10,544 bases of DNA from a virus (lineage: Duplodnaviria > Heunggongvirae > Uroviricota > Caudoviricetes): IMG/VR virus record IMGVR_UViG_2579778804_000012, positions 1 through 10,544 of that record. One strand, given 5' to 3'. Positions 1-10,544 of this stretch are shown piece after piece. The notes below the pieces were generated by a model. The model was not told the origin of the DNA. It worked only from the letters and a program-made list of their open reading frames with translations, and did not search any database. The translations under genes and the position numbers were made by a program. Each line of letters opens with the position of its first letter. The stretch's first letter is position 1.

Positions 1-1218
1 ATGAACAAACTGAGCGATACCTTGCTAAGGAAACTTCATGGTAAGCCAGCGGAGAAAAACACGTTTTATAGCGATGGCGGAAATCTGAGCGTGAAATATT
101 TAACATCAGGGAAATTAACCTGGTATTTCACTTACAGGGCAGGAACGGGAAGAGAGACACGACCGGAACGTATTAAGCTGGGAAATTATCCTGATCTGAG
201 CCTGAAAGCAGCCAGGGAAAAAGCCGCCCAGTGTCGCGCATGGCTGGCGGAGGGGAAAAATCCACGCCATGAGATGAATTACGCCGTACAGGAAGCGTTA
301 AAGCCGGTAACGGTTGGCGATGCGCTCACCTACTGGCTTGAGTCGTACGTAAAGGAAAACCGCGTGGATTATATCGCCCTGAAAAGGCGACTTAATAATC
401 ACGTAATACAGTACATTGGCGCTATGCCGCTGGATAAATGCGAGCTACGGCACTGGCTGGCCTGTTTTGACCAGGTGGCAAAGCGAACACCTGTTACTGC
501 CGGATTCGTGCTACAGACATGCAAGCAGGCGCTTAAGTTCTGCCGGAGGCGGCGCTTTGCAATCAGCAACGTTCTCGATGATCTGAACGTGGCGGACGTT
601 GGGAAAAAACCGGATATAAGCGAACGTGTCTTAAGCACCAAAGAACTGGGCGAGTTATTGCAGGCGCTGGATAAAAAAATATTTTCTCCTTACTACGTCG
701 CGTTAATCCGCCTCCTGATTGTCTTCGGAGCCAGGACGGTAGAACTGAGGTTATCGGAGATCAGCGAGTGGGATTTTACCGAAATGCTATGGACCGTTCC
801 GAAGGAGCACAGCAAAACGAAGGTTGCAATATTCCGGCCCATACCGGAAGCGATCCTGCCGTTCGTCACGCGGCTGGTGGACCAGAACAGGCACACGGGC
901 TTATTACTGGGGGAAGTGAAACAGGAGGCTAGCGTATCGCAGTACGGCAGATTAGCGCACAGGAGGCTAAAACACCCTCAATGGTCATTGCATGACATCC
1001 GGCGCACCTTTACAACCATGCTGAACGATTTAGGCGTTGATCCTCACGTCGTGGAGCAGCTTACAGGCCACCAGATGCCAGGAATGCAACGCGTGTACAA
1101 CCATTCCCGCTATATTGATGCGAAACGCAATGCGCTTGATATGTGGGTGGAGCGGTTGGAGATACTGGCGGGAACACATGAAAACGTAACCACGCTACCA
1201 GTAACCAGAATAAAATAA
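1..1218 (+). CDS. int: tyrosine integrase, P4-type (N-terminal arm-binding-like domain plus catalytic domain)
   Basis: 405-aa ORF. N-terminus LSDTLLRKL..GKPAEK..YSDGGNLSVKY..W.F.YR...LGNYPDLSLKAAREKA matches the P4-family integrase N-terminal pattern; C-terminus HDIRRTF....GHQMPGMQRVYNHSRY fits the H-x-x-R and catalytic Tyr region. Window begins exactly at its ATG. Confidence 0.9.
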   Translation: MNKLSDTLLRKLHGKPAEKNTFYSDGGNLSVKYLTSGKLTWYFTYRAGTGRETRPERIKLGNYPDLSLKAAREKAAQCRAWLAEGKNPRHEMNYAVQEALKPVTVGDALTYWLESYVKENRVDYIALKRRLNNHVIQYIGAMPLDKCELRHWLACFDQVAKRTPVTAGFVLQTCKQALKFCRRRRFAISNVLDDLNVADVGKKPDISERVLSTKELGELLQALDKKIFSPYYVALIRLLIVFGARTVELRLSEISEWDFTEMLWTVPKEHSKTKVAIFRPIPEAILPFVTRLVDQNRHTGLLLGEVKQEASVSQYGRLAHRRLKHPQWSLHDIRRTFTTMLNDLGVDPHVVEQLTGHQMPGMQRVYNHSRYIDAKRNALDMWVERLEILAGTHENVTTLPVTRIK

Positions 1219-1235
1219 TTTTTTTCGTGTTTTTT

Positions 1236-1251
1236 CAGTATGCGCATACTG
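1236..1251. promoter_or_regulatory. perfect 16-bp palindrome CAGTATGCGCATACTG just after the int stop; candidate protein-binding site or hairpin
   Basis: Self-complementary 16-mer read directly; preceded by a T-run (1221-1235). Confidence 0.4.
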
Positions 1252-1260
1252 GATAAGTGC

Positions 1261-1310
1261 ACAGATACAACGTGAAACAATGTGCAACAACGTGACACAA
1301 TCACGAACAA
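1261..1310. repeat. five tandem 10-bp phased units (acagatACAA cgtgaaACAA tgtgcaACAA cgtgacACAA tcacgaACAA); candidate DNA-binding array
   Basis: Exact 10-bp periodicity with invariant ACAA ends and GTGA/GTGC cores, read directly. Confidence 0.6.
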
Positions 1311-1401
1311 GAGGCCAAAAAGAATACAGATTTGTAAGCTACTGATTTTTAATGCTCAGCTGGTTTTTTATACATTAGTGAATTACGCGTTAAAGTGTGC
1401 G

Positions 1402-1438
1402 AAAAAAGGCATAAAACAAGATTTTATGCCTTTGTATT
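1402..1438. terminator. hairpin terminator candidate between int and alpA (stem GGCATAAAA/TTTTATGCC, A-run before, T-rich after)
   Basis: 9-bp perfect inverted repeat 1408-1416/1422-1430, loop caaga, followed by tttgtatt. Confidence 0.5.
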
Positions 1439-1592
1439 AACATGAATTTAAATGATTTTATCCTGATTATTCCTCTTTCTGTAAACCATGCGACACCAAC
1501 ATTTGCCAACTCTGAATCATCCTGACACAATCAGACACATCCCAACGCAATAGAACACGAAATAACTCTTTAAGAAACGAAAGGGGGCAATA

Positions 1593-1781
1593 GTGTTAAG
1601 CACTGATCGGTTTATACGTGAAAAAGAATGCGAAAAGCTAACAGGCCTTAGCCGCTCATGCCGCTACCGCCTGGAAAAGGCCGGACAATTCCCATCACGT
1701 CGTAAACTTGGTGGGCGTTCTGTTGGCTGGTCTTTATCTGAGGTTTTGGCCTGGAAGGATAGCTGCAAGGCAGTTCACTAA
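1593..1781 (+). CDS. alpA: AlpA-family transcriptional regulator / possible excisionase (GTG start)
   Basis: 62-aa ORF; LTGLSRSCRYRLEKAGQFPSRRKLGGRSVGWSLSEVLAWK matches the AlpA signature (TG.SR...Y......FP..RKLG.RSVGW...E...W). RBS AAGGGGG at 1581-1587. Confidence 0.8.
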   Translation: MLSTDRFIREKECEKLTGLSRSCRYRLEKAGQFPSRRKLGGRSVGWSLSEVLAWKDSCKAVH

Positions 1782-1920
1782 AAAGACTGGCGGCACACAG
1801 TCGCCACACATCCACTAATACAGAGATATAACTATGAAGATTGAATATGCGCCCGAACGTGGGCGGGGATTCGTTCGCCCTGGTGAAACTGAAAAACAAC
1901 AAAATTGGGGTTTTTCAGGC

Positions 1921-1950
1921 ATAAAAAAAGCGGCCCCGATATGGAGCCGC
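1921..1950 (-). terminator. candidate intrinsic terminator for the minus-strand small-gene operon (stem GCGGC/GCCGC, U-run on minus strand)
   Basis: Stem 1930-1934/1946-1950 with 11-nt loop; on the minus strand it is followed by the complement of the A-run at 1922-1929. About 75 nt below the stop of the 2025..2228 gene. Confidence 0.4.
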
Positions 1951-2024
1951 CTTTCTGAACAATTAACCTGCTGCGCCTTATGTGTATGTGATCCCAAACA
2001 TAAGCACGGGAATGATAGCCGCTA

Positions 2025-2228
2025 TCAGGCTGGTGGGCAATTACCTTGCTTGTTGGGGCCGTATTGTGCTGCCATTTTCATCCGTTCAGAACGTGAATAT
2101 TTTTTTAGAAACTCATCAAGGACAAAAGCGCATGGAGCGAATCTTTCTGATTCATGCTCGAGCGCCATATTTTCGTGCTCTCTGTTCGTTTTTTGCGATG
2201 GTGTATTGGTTGATTCTTTGTTGGTCAT
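2025..2228 (-). CDS. small acidic protein of unknown function (67 aa), paralog of the 2686..2913 gene
   Basis: Starts MTN.., shares FVLDEFLKKY with FALEDFVDKY in the paralog; identical 43-bp upstream element; RBS AGGT 8 nt upstream. Confidence 0.5.
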   Translation of the reverse strand: MTNKESTNTPSQKTNREHENMALEHESERFAPCAFVLDEFLKKYSRSERMKMAAQYGPNKQGNCPPA

Positions 2229-2237
2229 TGTGTGTAC

Positions 2238-2280
2238 CTGTAAAGCAATGCGCCGGAGTTCCTCACGCCACGGCGCTGAT
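2238..2280. repeat. 43-bp element, copy a (100% identical to 2923-2965), intergenic upstream of the MTN-type gene
   Basis: ctgtaaagcaatgcgccggagttcctcacgccacggcgctgat read identically at both sites; contains inverted repeat GCGCCG..CGGCGC. Confidence 0.9.
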
Positions 2281-2285
2281 GTTTT

Positions 2286-2465
2286 TTATTCTTTGGGTTC
2301 AATACCGCGTTGCTGTAATTCTTTTCGGATTATTCGTTTTATCCAAGCTGCTAAAGAGTCATCACCGTCTTGTTGTTGTGCTTTTTCCATCTTTTCCCGT
2401 AAGTCAGGATCTAAACGGAACTGGAAAGGAGGATTACCACGCCTTTCATTTTTGTGTGTTGACAC
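2286..2465 (-). CDS. Arc/MetJ-type ribbon-helix-helix DNA-binding protein candidate (59 aa from GTG; 34 aa if ATG at 2390)
   Basis: Minus-strand translation ..RRGNPPFQFRLDPDLREKMEKAQQQDGDDSLAAWIKRIIRKELQQRGIEPKE fits the Arc-like strand-helix-helix pattern; RBS GGGGTG 8 nt upstream of the GTG. Absent from the supplied ORF track (non-ATG start, under 60 aa). Confidence 0.45.
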   Translation of the reverse strand: MSTHKNERRGNPPFQFRLDPDLREKMEKAQQQDGDDSLAAWIKRIIRKELQQRGIEPKE

Positions 2466-2486
2466 GTCAATTACACCCCATATAAT
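2459..2486 (+). promoter_or_regulatory. consensus sigma70-type promoter: TTGACA (2459-2464), 16-bp spacer, TATAAT (2481-2486)
   Basis: Both hexamers are perfect consensus with near-optimal spacing; it overlaps the start region of the minus-strand Arc-like gene. Confidence 0.55.
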
Positions 2487-2492
2487 GTGTTT

Positions 2493-2508
2493 ATGTGTAT
2501 ATACACAT
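2493..2508. promoter_or_regulatory. perfect 16-bp palindrome ATGTGTATATACACAT immediately downstream of the -10; candidate operator
   Basis: Self-complementary 16-mer read directly, at about +1 to +20 of the promoter above. Confidence 0.5.
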
Positions 2509-2530
2509 TACACACAACTAGCACAAAAAA

Positions 2531-2599
2531 CAACGCCCCGCAGTGATGGGAACACATACGGGGCGTCTAACCAAACCATTAATTGAGGTAACGATTATG
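2531..2599. ncRNA. structured element copy 1: 7-bp GC stem CGCCCCG/CGGGGCG with 18-nt loop, conserved tail TCTAACCAAACC, RBS and ATG GCT; leader RNA on plus strand and/or terminator on minus strand
   Basis: Stem 2534-2540/2559-2565. On the minus strand it is followed by TTGTTTTTTGTG (terminator-like). On the plus strand it precedes GAGG, then ATG at 2597. Homologous to 3398-3466. Confidence 0.4.
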
Positions 2600-2685
2600 G
2601 CTATAAAAGAGCATAGCTTACTCTTTATACACACACAAACGCCCCGGAAACGGAATAATCCGTTTCATAGTTCGGTTTTGTGCAC

Positions 2686-2913
2686 TCATCCTGGCGGTCG
2701 GTTTTTGCCGGATTTAAGCCGCCGTGGGTATTTATCGACAAAATCTTCAAGGGCAAATTTTTCTGGTGGCACTAAGCGCGGCGCTGGTGGTGGTATTTTT
2801 GTTCTGGTTAGTTCTTCCTCAAGTCTGGCGCAGGCTTCTGACTGCCTTTGCCGGATGATTTCATCATCTTGCGTTTGCGTGTCTTGTATTGGTGATAGTG
2901 TGTTGTTGGTCAT
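2686..2913 (-). CDS. small acidic/proline-rich protein of unknown function (75 aa), paralog of the 2025..2228 gene
   Basis: Starts MTNN.., contains FALEDFVDKY; preceded by the 43-bp element copy b. Confidence 0.55.
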   Translation of the reverse strand: MTNNTLSPIQDTQTQDDEIIRQRQSEACARLEEELTRTKIPPPAPRLVPPEKFALEDFVDKYPRRLKSGKNRPPG

Positions 2914-2922
2914 GTTACTGCC

Positions 2923-2965
2923 CTGTAAAGCAATGCGCCGGAGTTCCTCACGCCACGGCGCTGAT
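2923..2965. repeat. 43-bp element, copy b (100% identical to 2238-2280)
   Basis: Identical 43-mer between the RHH gene stop (2971) and the downstream gene start (2913). Confidence 0.9.
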
Positions 2966-2970
2966 AGTGA

Positions 2971-3277
2971 TTATTCTGATTCTTTGGCCTTGCGGCGCTG
3001 GAGTTCTTCGCGTGCGATGGCGATAAGTTGCCCGAGTTCTTCCGTAGCTTTAATACCAATTTTTTCCACTTGCGCCAATGCATCGAGAGAAGAAATCAGA
3101 GGATTTTCACTGCTTCCTTCTGCCTGGCGGCGGGCGATCTCCCCGCGCATGGCGGTTACTATGAATCCGGCGTTGCTTTCGCCGTCCAGTTTTACGGATT
3201 CCATGCCATCAAAAGCATCATGTGGGATACGAATTGAAATCTGTTTTGATTTGTCGTTGATAGTGTTTTTTGCCATG
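2971..3277 (-). CDS. ribbon-helix-helix (Arc/CopG-like) DNA-binding protein candidate, 101 aa from the MAKNT start
   Basis: KQISIRIPHDAFDGMESVKLDGESNAGFIVTAMRGEIARRQ fits the RHH pattern. Start moved from the track ATG at 3315 to the ATG at 3277, which sits 6 nt after RBS AGGAGA. C-terminus resembles the Arc-like paralog (IAREELQRRKAKESE vs IRKELQQRGIEPKE). Confidence 0.6.
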
Positions 3278-3298
3278 TGCATTCTCCTAAACAAAAGA

Positions 3299-3376
3299 TG
3301 TGATTCAGTATACACAAAAAAGAATCACAAAAAACACTTGACCTGTGATTCAGTTGAATTTAATTTAAATCACACC
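3299..3376. promoter_or_regulatory. operator-like cluster: TGTGATTCAGT direct repeats (3299-3309, 3344-3354) plus inverted half-sites GAATCACA (3322-3329) and AATCACAC (3368-3375); weak candidate promoter TTGACC at 3338-3343
   Basis: Repeated motif in both orientations in the divergent region between the RHH gene and the Icd-like gene. Confidence 0.4.
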
Positions 3377-3397
3377 TCAGTAAGAGGATGTAAACGA

Positions 3398-3463
3398 CAA
3401 CGCCCCGAACTGTTTGCGGCAGTAGCGGGGCGTCTAACCAAACCGTTAACAGGAGTAACGATT
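3398..3463 (+). ncRNA. structured leader copy 2: stem CGCCCCG/CGGGGCG (3401-3407/3426-3432), 18-nt loop, tail TCTAACCAAACC, RBS AGGAG, then ATG GCT; candidate c4/CI-like regulatory RNA or 5'-UTR element
   Basis: Same stem, tail and RBS/start block as copy 1 but a different loop; no U-run on the minus strand, so a plus-strand role is favoured here. Confidence 0.4.
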
Positions 3464-3664
3464 ATGGCTGGAACACAGCATACCCCACGTCTGGCGCACA
3501 CACAAACTGCCTTTGTGTGGCGTTTTCTGGCCCTGAGTGCCGGAGAATCTCAAATCATCCACGTAACCGCCTGGACGGAACGCGAAGCGCGTAACCGTTG
3601 CCCGTCCGGTTGTGTTGCTGTATTCGCTGCCCGTATTCGCCAGGGGGAAACCTATGCACAATAA
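3464..3664 (+). CDS. small protein (66 aa) in the position of Icd-like (host cell division inhibitor-like) proteins of P4-type elements; identity tentative
   Basis: MAGTQHTPRLAHTQTAFVWRFLALSAGESQ...; good RBS; follows the structured leader. The first 15 aa are homologous to the truncated start at 2597 (MAIKEHSLLFIHTQT). Confidence 0.5.
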   Translation: MAGTQHTPRLAHTQTAFVWRFLALSAGESQIIHVTAWTEREARNRCPSGCVAVFAARIRQGETYAQ

Positions 3665-3884
3665 AACCACACCGGACGCAGCAGAAGAAGCAATGCAAAT
3701 ACTGATACGTGCGCTCGTTGATGTTACCCACATGGTGGAGAGCATGGAGAGAAAATCACAGTCGGAGCACGACAAAAGAAAACTTAAAACAATAAAAATA
3801 ATTGCCAAAAACTCGCTGATAAAAGTTACAGACATCCTTAATGAGGACATTAAAAGAATAAGGGAGAAAATTTGTGATGCATAA
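3654..3884 (+). CDS. hypothetical small protein (76 aa), AT-rich gene
   Basis: ATG at 3654 with RBS AGGGGG 6 nt upstream; overlaps the Icd-like stop; lysine-rich, low GC. Confidence 0.5.
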   Translation: MHNKTTPDAAEEAMQILIRALVDVTHMVESMERKSQSEHDKRKLKTIKIIAKNSLIKVTDILNEDIKRIREKICDA

Positions 3885-4104
3885 AATCCCTTTTGAAGTA
3901 TTAATCCACTCTGAAAACGCATTAATTAAAGCACGCGAAATGAATGCGTTGTTAATTAAATTAATTGAAGTGCCGGAAGGTGGTGAAGAATCAGGTGTAT
4001 TAATGTTTGCAGCCATTCAGACATTACTATCGCCTGTTATTGATGAACTGGATAAGGCAATGGCAATTCACGAGAATAATAACTCGCCCCACACCGGAGA
4101 ATAA
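3874..4104 (+). CDS. hypothetical small protein (about 75 aa), AT-rich gene
   Basis: GTG 3874 / ATG 3877 after RBS AAGGGAG; start overlaps the stop of the previous gene. Confidence 0.5.
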   Translation: MMHKIPFEVLIHSENALIKAREMNALLIKLIEVPEGGEESGVLMFAAIQTLLSPVIDELDKAMAIHENNNSPHTGE

Positions 4105-4109
4105 AAATA

Positions 4110-4409
4110 ATGAAACTTAAATATTCTGGCTTAACTGCCAGTGGCAACACTCACCCTAAATTTACGCGCGGTGATATTTACCGCGACCAGTACGGCGGCA
4201 CGGTAATGATTAAGGGCGTGGCGGGACGGTGCGTAACTTACCGCCGTGAAGGTTACGAATATGATTGCGTGATGCCTGTTTATCAGTTCCGGCGTGATTT
4301 TTCTCTGGTACAGACCGCGCCGCATAACGTGCCCACCAGCAACGCCAGGGCACGGGCAAACATCCAGAAGCTGAAAACCATGATTAACGGATTCAGGGGT
4401 AAAAAATGA
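4110..4409 (+). CDS. hypothetical protein (99 aa), translationally coupled to the helicase gene
   Basis: RBS GGAGA 9 nt upstream; its stop overlaps the helicase ATG (ATGA). Confidence 0.6.
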   Translation: MKLKYSGLTASGNTHPKFTRGDIYRDQYGGTVMIKGVAGRCVTYRREGYEYDCVMPVYQFRRDFSLVQTAPHNVPTSNARARANIQKLKTMINGFRGKK

Positions 4410-5815
4410 AACTGGCACCGAACGTAAAACTATTACCGAAAGACAAATACACCGATGCGATTATTTTTGCGGGTATTGATGCTCACTCATTCGCAGAGCA
4501 TTACATCATTGCACAGGCCAAAAAAGCAGGCGATCCAGTCCCTCCCGTTTATCTGGGGCGTTATCAGTTAAGCGAACTGGATAACCTCCAGATTGTTGAT
4601 GATGGGCGATACAGGGCGACGGTGATACGCGCCGGAAATATTGAAGAGCCGCAGCTGTTAACCATCGCCACGAAACTGGCGATCGCCGGAGTCCAGGAGG
4701 CGCGGCTACTTTCTGAAAATTTCGAATTGCTGGAGGAATGGAGCGACCAGCTTCCACGGCTTAGGGAGGCATGGGAACGCGGGGAAAGCCTGGTCATGAA
4801 AAAAATCCCCCAGCGAAAAACCACGCTACCGATGAGCGTTGGATCTACCGGATACGACACACAGCTTGATTACGTGGTAAAGGGGATTATTCCGGCATCG
4901 TCGCTTTGCAGCATATACGGGGCGAGCGGTTCCTATAAATCATTCCTTGCCGGATCGTGGGCGTGTCACGTTTCCACGGGCCGCCAGTGGGGAGGCCGCA
5001 GGGTGGCGCATGGCGCTGTTCTCTATGTGGTTGGTGAAGGCGGTATCGGCGTTCCGCGTCGTGTAAAAGCCTGGGAGGTTGTGCACGGTGAGCAGGTGAA
5101 AAATCTGTATCTGGTAAACCGTCCCATCTTTCCGGCGGTCCCGCTTGATGTTGATGAAATGGTTATCGCTGCCCGTCAGGTGGAGCGGGAAACGGGTAAA
5201 CCTGTACGCATGATTATTCTGGATACGCTGGCGCGTTGCTTTGGTGGGAATGATGAAAATGATTCCCGTGATATGGGGGCGTTTATCCGTGGTTGTGACG
5301 AACTGAAACGACGCACAGGGGCCACGGTGCTGGTGGTTCACCATTCCGGCAAGGATGAGACGAAAGGCGCGCGCGGTTCCAGTGCATTTCGTGCATCACT
5401 GGATGCTGAATACCGGATACGCAGGGAGGACGCAGGAAGCGAAGCGCTGGTTATCTCATGCACCAAAATGAAGGACGCGGAGGAACTCAAAGAAGCCGCA
5501 TATGACTTACGCGTGGTGGAGCTGTTTACCGACGCTGACGGGGAGTTAATCACGTCGCTGGTGGTGGTGGATAAGCCGCGCCCTCCCGTTGAACTGGAAC
5601 GCATCGAGGAGGCAGGCAACAAGACGGAAAACCATACCGCACTATGGGGGTGCATCCGTTCACGCACACAGAACGGCGACAAGTGCACGATCCCGCTGTT
5701 ACGTGATGACATGAAACGGCTTGGGTATGACGTGAAAAATATGCGGCGATGGTTAGCCAAACTGGAAAAAGACGCCGTGATTTACATTGATGGTGATGAT
5801 GTAGGACCACTGTAA
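4406..5815 (+). CDS. RepA-like replicative helicase / RecA-fold AAA ATPase with C-terminal DNA-binding region
   Basis: 469 aa; Walker A GASGSYKS, Walker B-like VRMIILDTLAR, then VLVVHHSGKD; an iteron array lies immediately downstream. Confidence 0.85.
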   Translation: MKLAPNVKLLPKDKYTDAIIFAGIDAHSFAEHYIIAQAKKAGDPVPPVYLGRYQLSELDNLQIVDDGRYRATVIRAGNIEEPQLLTIATKLAIAGVQEARLLSENFELLEEWSDQLPRLREAWERGESLVMKKIPQRKTTLPMSVGSTGYDTQLDYVVKGIIPASSLCSIYGASGSYKSFLAGSWACHVSTGRQWGGRRVAHGAVLYVVGEGGIGVPRRVKAWEVVHGEQVKNLYLVNRPIFPAVPLDVDEMVIAARQVERETGKPVRMIILDTLARCFGGNDENDSRDMGAFIRGCDELKRRTGATVLVVHHSGKDETKGARGSSAFRASLDAEYRIRREDAGSEALVISCTKMKDAEELKEAAYDLRVVELFTDADGELITSLVVVDKPRPPVELERIEEAGNKTENHTALWGCIRSRTQNGDKCTIPLLRDDMKRLGYDVKNMRRWLAKLEKDAVIYIDGDDVGPL

Positions 5816-6015
5816 AAAGTGAGTAGCAAAAGTGAGTAATGGTGAGGTTTTTACAAAATATTAACACGATTACTCACTTTCTCACCTGTATACATGCTCA
5901 AAAGTGAGGAGTAAAAAAATCCTTATGAAACACACACATAAAGCATCAAAAAATATCAAGTGAGACGAAGCGAGACGCTTTAAAAAGTGAGGTGTAAAAG
6001 TGAGCATGAGTGAGG
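5816..6015. repeat. iteron array, putative replication origin: at least 9 copies of (A)AGTGAG in both orientations with AT-rich spacers
   Basis: GTGAG at 5819, 5832, 5842, 5904, 5960, 5987, 6000, 6010; inverted CTCAC at 5874 and 5881; AT-rich stretches 5850-5870 and 5911-5957. Confidence 0.6.
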
Positions 6016-6269
6016 AGATAACCAAAATGCGCAGAGACAGAACAGAGCCGAAATATAAAGCGTTAGACATGACAGAGCACGCCTTAAAGGTGGCAATCAG
6101 GGTAATAGACCGCCACGCGGGGGAAGGATACGCGAAGGAGCATCCCGAACTGATAAGCGCATTCATGACCACAGCGGCGGCAAACTTTGCCACGCTGACA
6201 GAGCGGGAGATTGCGGAAGCTGAACAGGTGACAACCATCAACGTTAAAAACGTAGAGGTGGAATCATGA
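6000..6269 (+). CDS. hypothetical protein (about 87-89 aa)
   Basis: GTG 6000 or ATG 6006 after GAGG; its stop overlaps the ssb-like start. Confidence 0.55.
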   Translation: MSMSEEITKMRRDRTEPKYKALDMTEHALKVAIRVIDRHAGEGYAKEHPELISAFMTTAAANFATLTEREIAEAEQVTTINVKNVEVES

Positions 6270-6688
6270 CAGCACAGATAGCGGCTTACGGGCGGCTGGT
6301 GGCTGACCCACAGTTAAAGACCACCAGCAAGGGCACACAAATGACGATGGCGAGTATGGCTGTCCCCCTGCCGTGCAGCCAGGCAGATGACGGAACGGCT
6401 ACGATGTGGTTATCCGTCCTGGCGTTTGGCAGACAGGCCGACGCACTGGCAAAACACCGCAAAGGCGAGCTGGTGAGCGTGGCGGGTAACATGCAGGTAA
6501 GCCAGTGGACAGGCCAGAACGGCGAAACGCGGCAGGGCTGGCAGGTTATCGCAGACAGCGTAATCAGTGCGAGAACGGCGCGACCGGGCGGCAAAAAAGG
6601 CCAGCAGGGGCAGGCTACTGACGCACTGAACAGGGCAAAACAACAGGCGGGGAATGATGATCCGTACGGGGATAACATACCGTTTTAA
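6266..6688 (+). CDS. ssb: single-stranded DNA-binding protein (SSB-like, short form)
   Basis: 140 aa; N-terminal OB-fold-like region, Gly/Gln-rich linker, and C-terminal acidic tip DDPYGDNIPF resembling the SSB D-I-P-F tail. Confidence 0.7.
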   Translation: MTAQIAAYGRLVADPQLKTTSKGTQMTMASMAVPLPCSQADDGTATMWLSVLAFGRQADALAKHRKGELVSVAGNMQVSQWTGQNGETRQGWQVIADSVISARTARPGGKKGQQGQATDALNRAKQQAGNDDPYGDNIPF

Positions 6689-7154: not shown

Positions 7155-7349
7155 ATGCCAGAGAACAACACCAGAAAGCCGGATAAAAGTGCCACGGTAC
7201 ACATAGACGCCGGAACTATGGAGAAGATCGAACGCTATCAGCAGTTCATCAAAGATAATCACCCGGGTATGCCAGTGCCCACGAAAGGACAAATCACACG
7301 CAGCGCGGTTGAATACTGGTACAGGGCAACGTTAGGAGCCTGGCTATGA
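7155..7349 (+). CDS. small protein (64 aa), possible RHH-type regulator, translationally coupled to the capsid gene
   Basis: ATG 7155 is 7 nt after RBS GGAGG (the track ORF starts earlier at 7122); its stop overlaps the ATG at 7346. Confidence 0.5.
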   Translation: MPENNTRKPDKSATVHIDAGTMEKIERYQQFIKDNHPGMPVPTKGQITRSAVEYWYRATLGAWL

Positions 7350-9235
7350 AAACATGGTTTTCCATTAAGGCTATGGCAGATGTTGTACATGTGCGCATTT
7401 ATGACGAGATCGGCGGGTACGGTGTAAAGGCATCGGCACTTACTGACGAGATCAACGCGTGCGGTAATGTGTCTGAAATCCATCTGAGCATTCATTCACC
7501 TGGTGGCGACATCTTTGAAGGGCTGGCTATCTATAACGCTCTGAAAAATCATCCGGCAAAAAAAATCGTACACATTGAAGGCATGGCGGCTTCTATGGCG
7601 TCGTTTATTGCCATGTGTGGAGATCACATCGTTATGCCTGAAAACGCGATGATGATGATACATGCCCCCCGTGGTGTTACTGCCGGAGTGTCGGGCGACG
7701 TTCGCCGCTTTGCTGATCTGATGGACAAGCTGGGCGACACGATGGCAGAAACCTATGCCGGAAGAACGGGCAGGAGCAAACAGGAGATCACCTCCATGAT
7801 GGAGGCGGAAACCTGGATGGATGGCAATGAGTGTAAGGCTAACGGCTTCGCAGATGAGGTTATACCCGCGATTACAGCAATGGCCCGAATTGAATCAAAA
7901 CGAATCGGAGATTTTTCAAATATGCCGGAAAAAATTAAAAGCATGATCAGCCAGAAAACTGGCAGTGGCGAACAGGAACGACTTAACGGAATCCGTGAAT
8001 TGTTTGGCACCTTCAACGGAAGATATAACGACCTGGCTATAAGTTGTCTTGCGGATTCAGAATGTAGCGTTGAGAATGCACGCGAACGCCTTTTACTCGC
8101 TATGGGTAAAGAATCAACGCCAACAAACAAAACCACCCCCGCAAATCTTTACTACGCGTACACGGATAACGGCAATATAACCGGCGATGCCATGCGTCAG
8201 GGGCTTAATGCGCGTCTTGGTCACGAACGGGCCGAACGCGGTAATCCTTACGCCATGATGAGCCTTTTCGATATGGCACAGGCATCATTAACCCATCGTG
8301 GTATAAGCACGGGCAGCTACAGCACACGCTCGCAGATAGTAAACGCGGCATTCACCCACAGCAGCAGCGATTTTACCGATATCCTTGCTGGTGGCGCTGA
8401 AAAATCAGTGCTTGCAGGCTGGGAGCACAGCGGCGAAACATTCCGCCAGTGGACGAAAAAAGGTTCCCTTTCAAACTTCCGGGAAGCCCGCCGCGTTGGT
8501 ATGAATGGCTTCTCAACGTTAAACAAAGTGCCGGAAGGGGCAGAATATAAATACATCACCACCAGCGATCGCGGTGAACCCATCGCGCTGGCTACTTACG
8601 GGAATATTTTCAGCATTACCCGCCAGGCGATAATCAATGATGACCTTGATCAGTTATCAACGGTGCCAATGGCTATGGGCCGTGCAGCATCAAGAACGGT
8701 GGGAAATCTGGTTAATCTGGTGCTTACAGGCAACGTAAAACTTTCTGACGGAATAGCGCTGTTTGACAAAAAACACAGCAACCTGATTGAAGCAGGACTG
8801 ACAACACCGGGACTTAGTGCAGCACGTCACCTGATGCGCACACAGAAGGACAAAAATGGCGAAGTGCTGAATATTGCGCCTAAATTCCTTTTAGTTCCGG
8901 CAGCACTGGAAGATCGCGCGTTGCAGATGATTAACTCAACCGCACCTTTCGGGGCTGATAAAAACAGCGGGATCTTTAACCCGTATCACAAGCTACTTGA
9001 TATCATCGTCGATCCCCGCCTTGATGATATCAGCGAAAAACAATGGTACATGCTTTCCGCACAGGGAACGGACACAATCGAGGTGGCTTATCTTGATGGC
9101 AATGACGAACCTTACCTTGAACAGCAGGAAGGCTTTATCGTTGACGGCGTGGCCTGGAAAGTCCGTATTGATGCAGGTGTGGCAGCTCTGGATTATCGCG
9201 GTATGGTCAAATCAGGCGGTACCGATTCACTATGA
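7346..9235 (+). CDS. prohead protease (ClpP/S14-like) fused to a probable major capsid protein, with a scaffold-like linker
   Basis: 629 aa; N-terminal 170 aa IHSPGGDIFEGLAIYNALKNH...HIEGMAASMASFIAMCGDHIVMPENAMMMIHAP matches the phage ClpP-like head-maturation protease pattern; the C-terminal ~400 aa is inferred to be capsid from size and context, not from a recognised motif. Confidence 0.75.
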   Translation: MKTWFSIKAMADVVHVRIYDEIGGYGVKASALTDEINACGNVSEIHLSIHSPGGDIFEGLAIYNALKNHPAKKIVHIEGMAASMASFIAMCGDHIVMPENAMMMIHAPRGVTAGVSGDVRRFADLMDKLGDTMAETYAGRTGRSKQEITSMMEAETWMDGNECKANGFADEVIPAITAMARIESKRIGDFSNMPEKIKSMISQKTGSGEQERLNGIRELFGTFNGRYNDLAISCLADSECSVENARERLLLAMGKESTPTNKTTPANLYYAYTDNGNITGDAMRQGLNARLGHERAERGNPYAMMSLFDMAQASLTHRGISTGSYSTRSQIVNAAFTHSSSDFTDILAGGAEKSVLAGWEHSGETFRQWTKKGSLSNFREARRVGMNGFSTLNKVPEGAEYKYITTSDRGEPIALATYGNIFSITRQAIINDDLDQLSTVPMAMGRAASRTVGNLVNLVLTGNVKLSDGIALFDKKHSNLIEAGLTTPGLSAARHLMRTQKDKNGEVLNIAPKFLLVPAALEDRALQMINSTAPFGADKNSGIFNPYHKLLDIIVDPRLDDISEKQWYMLSAQGTDTIEVAYLDGNDEPYLEQQEGFIVDGVAWKVRIDAGVAALDYRGMVKSGGTDSL

Positions 9236-9492: not shown

Positions 9493-9774
9493 ATGACAGA
9501 AGCCGAAATACTGGGATTAATCCGCCGCGTCGCCGGAATCAGCCAGCAGGTTGACGAACAGGCCACGCAGCCGGACAGCATGACCGCAGATAATTATGTG
9601 CGTGTAGTGGTGGAGGTGATGCGCGGTGATGGTATCCAGCTTAATGATGTGGATATGCGCAACATACGAACCAGAGTCCTTGAGTTGCTGGCATACCGTC
9701 GCCGCGTGGAGATGTATCGGGAGAAGGAGAAAATCACGTACCACTGGAAGAAGCCGGAGCGGTTACGGCGGTAA
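9493..9774 (+). CDS. hypothetical protein (93 aa), downstream of the capsid gene
   Basis: ATG with GGGGG 4 nt upstream; charged, arginine-rich C-terminus; function not recognisable. Confidence 0.55.
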   Translation: MTEAEILGLIRRVAGISQQVDEQATQPDSMTADNYVRVVVEVMRGDGIQLNDVDMRNIRTRVLELLAYRRRVEMYREKEKITYHWKKPERLRR

Positions 9775-9888
9775 CTTGTTGATTAAAAGGCGGCTCAATT
9801 CTGAGCTGGGTAGCTGACGGCGGTAACTGTTTTATATTCCCGATAGCGCAAAAATGCGCGGTCGGGCAGAATGACCACCACCTCAATC

Positions 9889-9930
9889 GTGACGGAGAGT
9901 GACAACCAGTGACACACCGTGACAAAAAGA
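9889..9930. repeat. four tandem 10-bp phased GTGAC units (GTGACggaga GTGACaacca GTGACacacc GTGACaaaaa)
   Basis: Exact 10-bp phasing read directly; same motif family as the 1261-1310 array. Confidence 0.6.
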
Positions 9931-9975
9931 CGGTTTAACCGTTCATTAAAAATCGACGTGATTTTGTGCTATCAG

Positions 9976-10000
9976 GATGACGTGGCCAACGTCATTTTTT
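9976..10000 (+). terminator. intrinsic terminator candidate (GATGACGT ggcca ACGTCAT + T-run)
   Basis: 7-8-bp stem followed by TTTTTT at 9995-10000. Confidence 0.5.
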
Positions 10001-10391
10001 AGCGAAAAATTCTGATTAAGGTCACTGGCTGAATGGTCATAATGACCACGCAGACCATCGAGGCAACCATAGCGATCATCGTTACGGTTGGAGCTTTTCC
10101 GCCATTGGTGGAAAAGGTGCACATCTGGATCATCATTACGGTGATCAAGGGTATGTAAAACCCACCAGCCTGATTAAATGTTAACCGGAAAAAAAATCCG
10201 GTAGCCCCGTTATGGGAATCCCCATATCGACAGCAACGCCCCCTTAAAATTACCCGCCTTTATATTTCTTGTGCCTATTTGTTCCACGTTGTTTCATACA
10301 GTGCGCCGAACGGTGTAGTCACTGGTGTAGTTATTTTGAGTTTTTTTGCACTTCGGGCTTAATTGAAAATATAATTAAATCAATATGTTAT

Positions 10392-10544
10392 TCAAAATAG
10401 GTTATATATAACAGCAATAAATAATGCGAGAATAAACGGCACGATGATCTCGGCGGCAAAACGGATACCGCAGAGAATAATGACCAGCATTCCCAACATA
10501 ATGACGATTTTTAGGCCATTGAGCGTGATGATCGGCTTTGCCAT
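10392..10544 (-). pseudogene. 5' fragment of a membrane transporter gene (51 codons, 46-aa hydrophobic N-terminus); TqsA/PerM-like from memory, unverified
   Basis: Minus-strand ATG at the window edge encodes [46 protein letters not shown], then YNLF and a stop at 10392-10394; far shorter than a full transporter. Confidence 0.45.

Follow-up and report, generated by a model that had tools for sequence, protein, structure and literature searches.

The 10,544-nt window (the whole stretch of DNA analysed here) ends on its right side in a minus-strand ORF of 50 codons (10392-10544, ATG to TGA), and the question that this locus raises is whether the ORF is a small gene in its own right or what is left of a host gene, and, in the latter case, what interrupted that gene. 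The first-pass annotation had taken the first 46 residues for the N-terminus of a TqsA/PerM-family transporter, cut about 138 nt into its coding region by an island or another insertion. The right end of the window contains the following features.

10312..10334, plus strand: two tandem repeats, GGTGTAGTCAC and GGTGTAGTTAT, of putative arm type; motif starts at 10312 and 10324
10354..10407: core-proximal attP arm, from attR alignments; putative core-type Int binding site
10392..10544, minus strand: truncated tqsA' ORF, 46 TqsA codons followed by four island codons (YNLF) and TGA
10400..10416: extended 17-bp imperfect repeat, attR GGTTATATATAACAGCA versus attB/attL GGTTAAGAATAACAGCA, 14/17 match
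10408..10416: attR copy of the perfect 9-bp att core ATAACAGCA, corresponding to tqsA nt 129-137, with the crossover placed inside the core
10417..10544, minus strand: host tqsA nt 1-128, right of the att core, from alignment with the intact tqsA of BLR(DE3)

When the right end of the window was used as a megablast query, matches were obtained in 5,424 of 5,426 complete E. coli genomes. Positions 10408-10544 (137 nt) are 100% identical (E = 5e-64) to the 5' end of a gene annotated as 'tqsA: AI-2 transporter TqsA', an identity seen in more than 5,400 genomes; TqsA is an AI-2 exporter according to the passage of PMC7918475 that cites Herzberg et al. 2006. At the protein level all 46 of the first 46 residues are identical to the N-terminus of intact TqsA, residue 46 being preserved because ATA in place of ATT is a synonymous change, and the transporter assignment thus stands. 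Beyond this point the sequences part: intact TqsA reads ...AVILNPLV, whereas the window ORF reads ...AVIYNLF and stops. The four non-TqsA codons occupy 10395-10406 and the TGA 10392-10394, next to AT-rich sequence that adjoins the break, just as the first-pass annotation had read this stretch. The ORF encodes one hydrophobic helix and has no Pfam match, the complete AI-2E domain (~327 positions) being absent from its single frame, and in E. coli 89-3156 (NZ_CP027366.1) PGAP labels the same fragment 'pheromone autoinducer 2 transporter, incomplete, missing C-terminus'. Judged by its sequence, the 50-codon ORF is a gene fragment and not a functional member of the AI-2E (PF01594) family, and the appropriate annotation is a tqsA pseudogene fragment rather than a gene.

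The remainder of the gene lies on the other side of the island. Strain 89-3156 differs from the window by a single base, at 10324 (G in the window, A there), and attL, which falls outside the window, was read from this genome. The gene order there is pntB, tqsA 3' part, int and the rest of the island, tqsA 5' part, ydgV and mdtJI. The 3' part, labelled 'missing N-terminus', comprises 906 nt directly to the left of int, again outside the window; island-free genomes have an uninterrupted 1,035-nt tqsA between pntB and ydgV. A three-way junction alignment gave attB as ...GGGTTAAGAATAACAGCAATAAATAATG..., attL as ...GGGTTAAGAATAACAGCA followed across the junction by TTTTATCAATTAG..., and attR as ...AAAATAGGTTATATATAACAGCA followed across the junction by ATAAATAATG.... 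The first-pass annotation had proposed that alignment with an uninterrupted allele would reveal any direct repeat upstream of int, and such a repeat is indeed present: the attL copy of the core ATAACAGCA precedes window position 1 by 187-195 nt, which leaves only attR inside the window. Within the 28.6 kb of the 89-3156 locus the core sequence occurs at the two junctions only, and the island between the cores is 10,603 bp long. The 3' half aligns with the intact allele over 906 nt without indels, and rejoining the halves in silico at the core restores an uninterrupted tqsA of 344 codons (1,035 nt, core counted once), whose product matches PF01594 (AI-2E transporter) at residues 14-328; the break at residue 46 is therefore inside the domain. 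The core, tqsA nt 129-137, agrees with the cut suggested earlier at about nt 138. No tRNA genes were found in the locus or within 13 kb. Although the repeat was derived independently here, it is identical to the published core of the phage-inducible chromosomal islands (PICIs) EcCI042 and EcCIK1516.

The genes and other features of the inserted DNA are listed below.

1..1218, plus strand: tyrosine integrase (Pfam Arm-DNA-bind_3, Phage_int_M and Phage_integrase; PGAP start 12 nt upstream of the window)
1593..1781, plus strand: AlpA-type excisionase/transcriptional regulator (phrog_2790, E = 1.7e-17; HTH regulator in PGAP)
3464..3664, plus strand: Icd-like cell-division inhibitor (PGAP; PHROG matches only in the last 65 aa of a long ORF)
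4110-4409, plus strand: DUF4222 protein (Pfam DUF4222; PGAP), part of a replication module at 4110..5815
4406-5815, plus strand: RepA-family helicase (Pfam AAA_25; PGAP), part of the same replication module (4110..5815)
5810-5858 and 5978-6026: two clusters of AAAGTGAG iterons (repeat search, families D1 and D3), 3' of repA
6266..6688, plus strand: single-strand DNA-binding protein (Pfam SSB)
7346..9235, plus strand: ClpP-like prohead protease/HK97-type major capsid fusion, 629 aa (Pfam CLP_protease and Phage_capsid_4; phrog_133)

By its gene set and size the island is classed as a Gram-negative PICI. Its length of 10,603 bp is within the ~8-15 kb of these elements, it is flanked by att direct repeats at a specific site (the published tqsA core), the integrase at one end is followed by an alpA-type regulator/excisionase, and phage lysis genes, tail genes and a full structural module are missing. 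In particular, neither the PGAP annotation nor the Pfam and PHROG scans yielded lysis, tail, portal, terminase or connector genes in the island, and the protease-capsid fusion is the sole structural gene annotated or detected. Along its whole length this fusion shares ~51% identity with the head protease/scaffold-capsid proteins of lambdoid Stx phages (VT1-Sakai, CP-1639 and mEp460), a likeness that hints at the type of helper. The iteron region (5810..6026) is a candidate replication origin; PICI origins have been reported 3' of the initiator gene (PMC6092414). PGAP annotates no IS elements in the island of 89-3156, known RNA families are absent from the window at gathering score, and a search for the lambda-type cosN (GGGCGGCGACCT, up to 2 mismatches) gave no hit.

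Two other satellite classes were considered and rejected. Capsid-forming PICIs, as reportedly defined by Alqurainy and colleagues in 2023, carry a complete capsid and packaging module (portal, TerL/TerS terminase, HNH and head-tail connectors) in addition to protease and capsid, and the portal, terminase and connector genes are absent here according to PGAP, Pfam and PHROG. The island is not a P4-like satellite either, as there is no tRNA within 13 kb and no sid, psu, delta or alpha primase was annotated or detected. Two long plus-strand ORFs, 1834-2586 (250 aa) and 2543-3664 (373 aa), have no family matches other than the Icd-like last 65 aa of the second. At 1834-3664 PGAP places four small minus-strand genes, including one for a YlcI/YnfO-family protein with a strong PHROG match, and the two long ORFs are probably not genes.

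Occupancy of the site was assessed in 5,426 complete E. coli genomes. The tqsA site is uninterrupted in 5,170 of them, the attR junction is present in 246 (at least 80% of a 255-nt junction query) and the attL junction in 247; these counts imply that ~4.5% have an entire island at precisely this position, and almost every interruption of the tqsA site belongs to this island type. The islands are not uniform. The tqsA island of 2011C-3911 encodes an identical Int together with a separate capsid protein, a decoration protein and a small terminase, and that of strain 042 (NC_017626.1) encodes a capsid protein, a decoration protein and PerC. Packaging modules at the tqsA site thus differ between the fusion (window 7346-9235) and separate capsid and decoration genes accompanied by TerS or PerC (9394-11970 of locus L004 and 3049-5680 of locus L006). 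The right arm, too, exists among the carriers in at least two sequence variants, ~99% and ~92% identical to the window, and the varied cargo together with these variants points to several independent acquisitions.

The same backbone is also found at other sites, namely between roxA (ycfD) and phoQ, with an Int 90% identical to that of the window, and between cspD and clpS, with an Int 76% identical. The cspD-clpS island is that of NZ_CP042934.2 ('E. coli 042'), a genome different from NC_017626.1, the published source of EcCI042. The three tqsA-site integrases are 95-100% identical to one another and 90% identical to the roxA-phoQ type. Outside E. coli, the integrase search of genome contigs recovered one locus, in Shigella flexneri, where the element occupies the roxA-phoQ site rather than tqsA and has a stop codon within int.

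Comparison of the islands at tqsA and roxA-phoQ reveals where their attachment sequences diverge. The attP arms are nearly identical up to the crossover, as expected for site-specific recombination, and the divergence is confined to ~45 bp beside the core and to the core itself. On the right side the match of the arm to the roxA-phoQ islands ends at window position 10353, and 10354-10407 is the sole stretch of the right arm that differs between the two island types. Such a pattern is, by sequence comparison, the signature of site-specific recombination by close-kin integrases with shifted specificity. The tandem GGTGTAGT repeats at 10312..10334 are putative arm-type binding sites of Int. The attL arm carries the same repeat pair (positions 4043 and 4055 of locus L001, span 4043-4066), and the pair is kept in EcCI042. 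Base 10324 of the window sits in the second copy, and the G found there makes both copies GGTGTAGT. The repeats differ by site: tqsA-type islands have GGTGTAGTCAC, and roxA-phoQ-type islands, the one in Shigella flexneri among them, have GGTGTAGTTAA. The two types of integrase are separated by 40 amino-acid differences, mostly at residues 1-60 (the arm-binding domain) and 120-200, and together with their repeats they constitute a natural pair for mapping specificity determinants.

Several observations concern the non-coding DNA around the junctions. The right arm at 10029-10353 has ~80% matches in unannotated DNA, as many as 3 in one O157:H7 genome; it therefore appears that a conserved non-coding right end is common to related satellites at other sites. 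Between the last island gene and attR, non-coding positions 9889-9925 contain GTGACA-bearing direct repeats, GTGACGGAGAGTGACAA and GTGACACACCGTGACAA, possibly a packaging or regulatory site. A promoter and terminator scan of 9700-10544 gave counts at the level of shuffled controls. Just left of the window, PGAP annotates as a hypothetical protein a 60-aa ORF (L001 3920-4102, minus strand) that extends across the attL arm and overlaps both the arm repeats and the beginning of int. It was considered as a source of a replacement TqsA N-terminus and rejected: it is not hydrophobic, and TGA TAA closes it, in the frame of the tqsA 3' part, immediately ahead of that part, so the island supplies neither a fusion nor a replacement N-terminus. 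This ORF is probably an annotation artefact.

Taken together, these results indicate that the ORF at the right edge is almost certainly the 5' remnant of tqsA at attR, left by attP x attB recombination that the Int of a PICI carried out at a dedicated site in tqsA. In this reading, Int recombined the attP of the island with attB inside tqsA, crossing over within the 9-bp core at codons 43-46, so that the whole island came to lie between nt 137 and nt 129 of tqsA and the core was duplicated. On the promoter-proximal side the tqsA frame runs four codons into island DNA before stopping, and the other 298 codons, on the far side of the island, are left without promoter, start codon and first transmembrane helix; judging from this anatomy, TqsA should be inactive as long as the island stays integrated. 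An internal start at Val51 or Met54 may nevertheless produce a TqsA lacking TM1. Upon induction of a helper phage, Int and AlpA would presumably excise the island and regenerate intact tqsA, the expected products being a circular attP (...GGTTATATATAACAGCATTTTATCAATTAG...) and a restored attB (...GGTTAAGAATAACAGCAATAAATAATG...). Loss of TqsA would be expected to alter AI-2 export. Both junctions, the repeat, the exact restoration in silico, the use of one and the same base across hundreds of genomes and the set of PICI genes were observed directly, and no evidence contradicting the junction assignment was encountered.

Other readings of the locus fare much worse. As a clean ATG-to-stop frame with one hydrophobic helix, the ORF might be a normal small membrane-protein gene, a case that the first-pass annotation had itself named as fatal to its proposal, or it might have been truncated by a deletion or an IS event that has no connection with the island. 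However, tqsA is uninterrupted across this point in the 5,170 genomes mentioned above, the missing 3' part directly adjoins the island on its opposite side, the lengths of the two parts add up to 1,035 nt when the duplicated core is counted a single time, and no IS element is annotated in the island; junction alignment, site occupancy and in-silico rejoining refute this reading, the probability of which we regard as negligible. The possibility of another insertion likewise falls away, because the island itself is the insert. It is also very improbable that tqsA is an off-target (secondary) site of an integrase with its primary site elsewhere, e.g. at roxA-phoQ. Such an origin could be argued from the 90%-identical integrase that uses the roxA-phoQ intergenic site with near-identical attP arms, and from the view of Bobay et al. 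that sparsely populated gene-disrupting sites are possible secondary sites (PMC3603311). Yet the attP core region of the island fits tqsA (9/9 in the perfect core, 14/17 in the extended one) and not the roxA-phoQ core GGACATA, Int and arm repeats differ in step between the tqsA and roxA-phoQ types, and the tqsA site is common to ~247 genomes with at least two right-arm variants and several types of cargo.

A different kind of proposal accepts the integration but assigns it a function, the island being a reversible switch on AI-2 export that integration turns off and regulated excision turns on in surviving cells, with gains for host or island. Its appeal comes from the listing of tqsA by Mageeney et al. 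2020, where a tight integrase clade targets the same Pfam domain at one position, and from the state of the gene halves, which in 89-3156 contain no indels or stops and rejoin to an intact ORF, and in 2011C-3911 and 042 are free of frameshifts according to PGAP. A recent insertion, though, predicts intact halves equally well, and three genomes were inspected. Moreover, the life cycle described for PICIs has them excise when a helper phage is induced and leave the cell through phage lysis, so that no surviving cell would benefit from the switch. We therefore find a switch unlikely, and slightly less likely still that the targeting of tqsA is adaptive, as quorum-sensing-linked regulated gene integrity, and not merely tolerated; tqsA being dispensable, simple tolerance of the insertion is a sufficient explanation. 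If the switch were real, reversible shut-off of the AI-2 exporter would change signalling in the host population, with possible effects on biofilm and motility or on helper-prophage induction and satellite spread.

Integration of a PICI by its own integrase, the reading preferred here, settles the right edge of the window as attR. It also means that about 1 in 22 complete E. coli genomes lacks an intact AI-2 exporter because of such islands, and island carriage is relevant to any comparison of strains for AI-2, biofilm or motility phenotypes. In addition, integrases that are 76-95% identical and combine near-identical attP arms with different cores may offer a natural series for studying specificity shifts of tyrosine integrases.

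The site has precedents in the literature. Bobay et al. 2013 name tqsA among the conserved genes disrupted by integrated elements (PMC3603311), and Mageeney et al. 2020 (PMC7192596) mapped with TIGER three integrative elements of 11-16 kb with a tight integrase clade, Eco33.11.tqsA, Eco282.16.tqsA and Eco557.15.tqsA. By their description these resemble the window island in disrupting the AI-2E (UPF0118) domain of E. coli tqsA, and the authors place the tqsA class among 19 new candidate cases of 'regulated gene integrity' (PMC7192596). The pattern on which that proposal is based, in which members of a tight integrase clade have independently broken a protein domain several times at a single position, is found here as well. 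A link between tqsA and PICIs does not appear in the main text of any paper in the literature searched, and is confined to the supplementary Table S1 that accompanies Fillol-Salom et al. 2018 (PMC6092414), which gives tqsA as the att gene and ATAACAGCA as the core of EcCI042 and EcCIK1516. The same study recognises eight E. coli attachment sites for PICIs that differ from those of prophages, and those given in Table S1 are all non-tRNA (PMC6092414).

The integrase provides a further point of comparison. Its N-terminal Arm-DNA-bind_3 and catalytic Phage_integrase domains (Pfam) reproduce the architecture of the P4 integrase, so that its description in the first-pass annotation as P4-type was apt. 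P4 itself targets the 3' end of a tRNA-Leu gene, which it restores, whereas the window island has no tRNA target and does not restore its target gene. The related remark that such a site is unusual for P4-type integrases accordingly holds against textbook P4 and does not hold for this integrase group, which routinely uses non-tRNA sites (Table S1, PMC6092414); PICI integrases have been reported to group with P4 Int (PMC10111431).

The islands closest in anatomy are those of the PICI collection. EcCICFT073 is listed in Table S1 at ycfD-phoQ with core GGACATATTT (PMC6092414), which matches the roxA-phoQ junction found here, and PICIs of this type have been mobilised experimentally by lambdoid helper phages (PMC6092414). 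They share with the window island the overall architecture, near-identical attP arms and an Int of 90% identity, and the roxA-phoQ island of JNE082640 even has the same protease-capsid fusion. They differ in the core (GGACATATTT) and in the arm repeats (GGTGTAGTTAA versus GGTGTAGTCAC), and their target is intergenic, so no gene is broken, whereas the window island breaks tqsA. EcCI042 is closer still. Like EcCIK1516 it shares the target gene and the 9-bp core ATAACAGCA with the window island, and in addition it has the same orientation, the same tqsA fragments of 144 and 906 nt, an Int 95% identical, an attL 98% identical and identical core junctions. Its attR arm is ~91% identical to that of the window, with a divergent stretch of ~45 bp. 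The backbone of EcCI042 (~11 kb) is also that of the window, consisting of int, an alpA-type HTH gene, an Icd-like gene, DUF4222, RepA helicase and SSB. The difference lies in the cargo: the window island has the 629-aa protease/capsid fusion and no PerC, whereas in EcCI042 the major capsid protein is encoded separately, alongside a head decoration protein and a regulator of the PerC family. Earlier publications already cover the phenomenon, the site and the core sequence, and the window is one more instance of them, with a capsid module that differs from that of the reference element.
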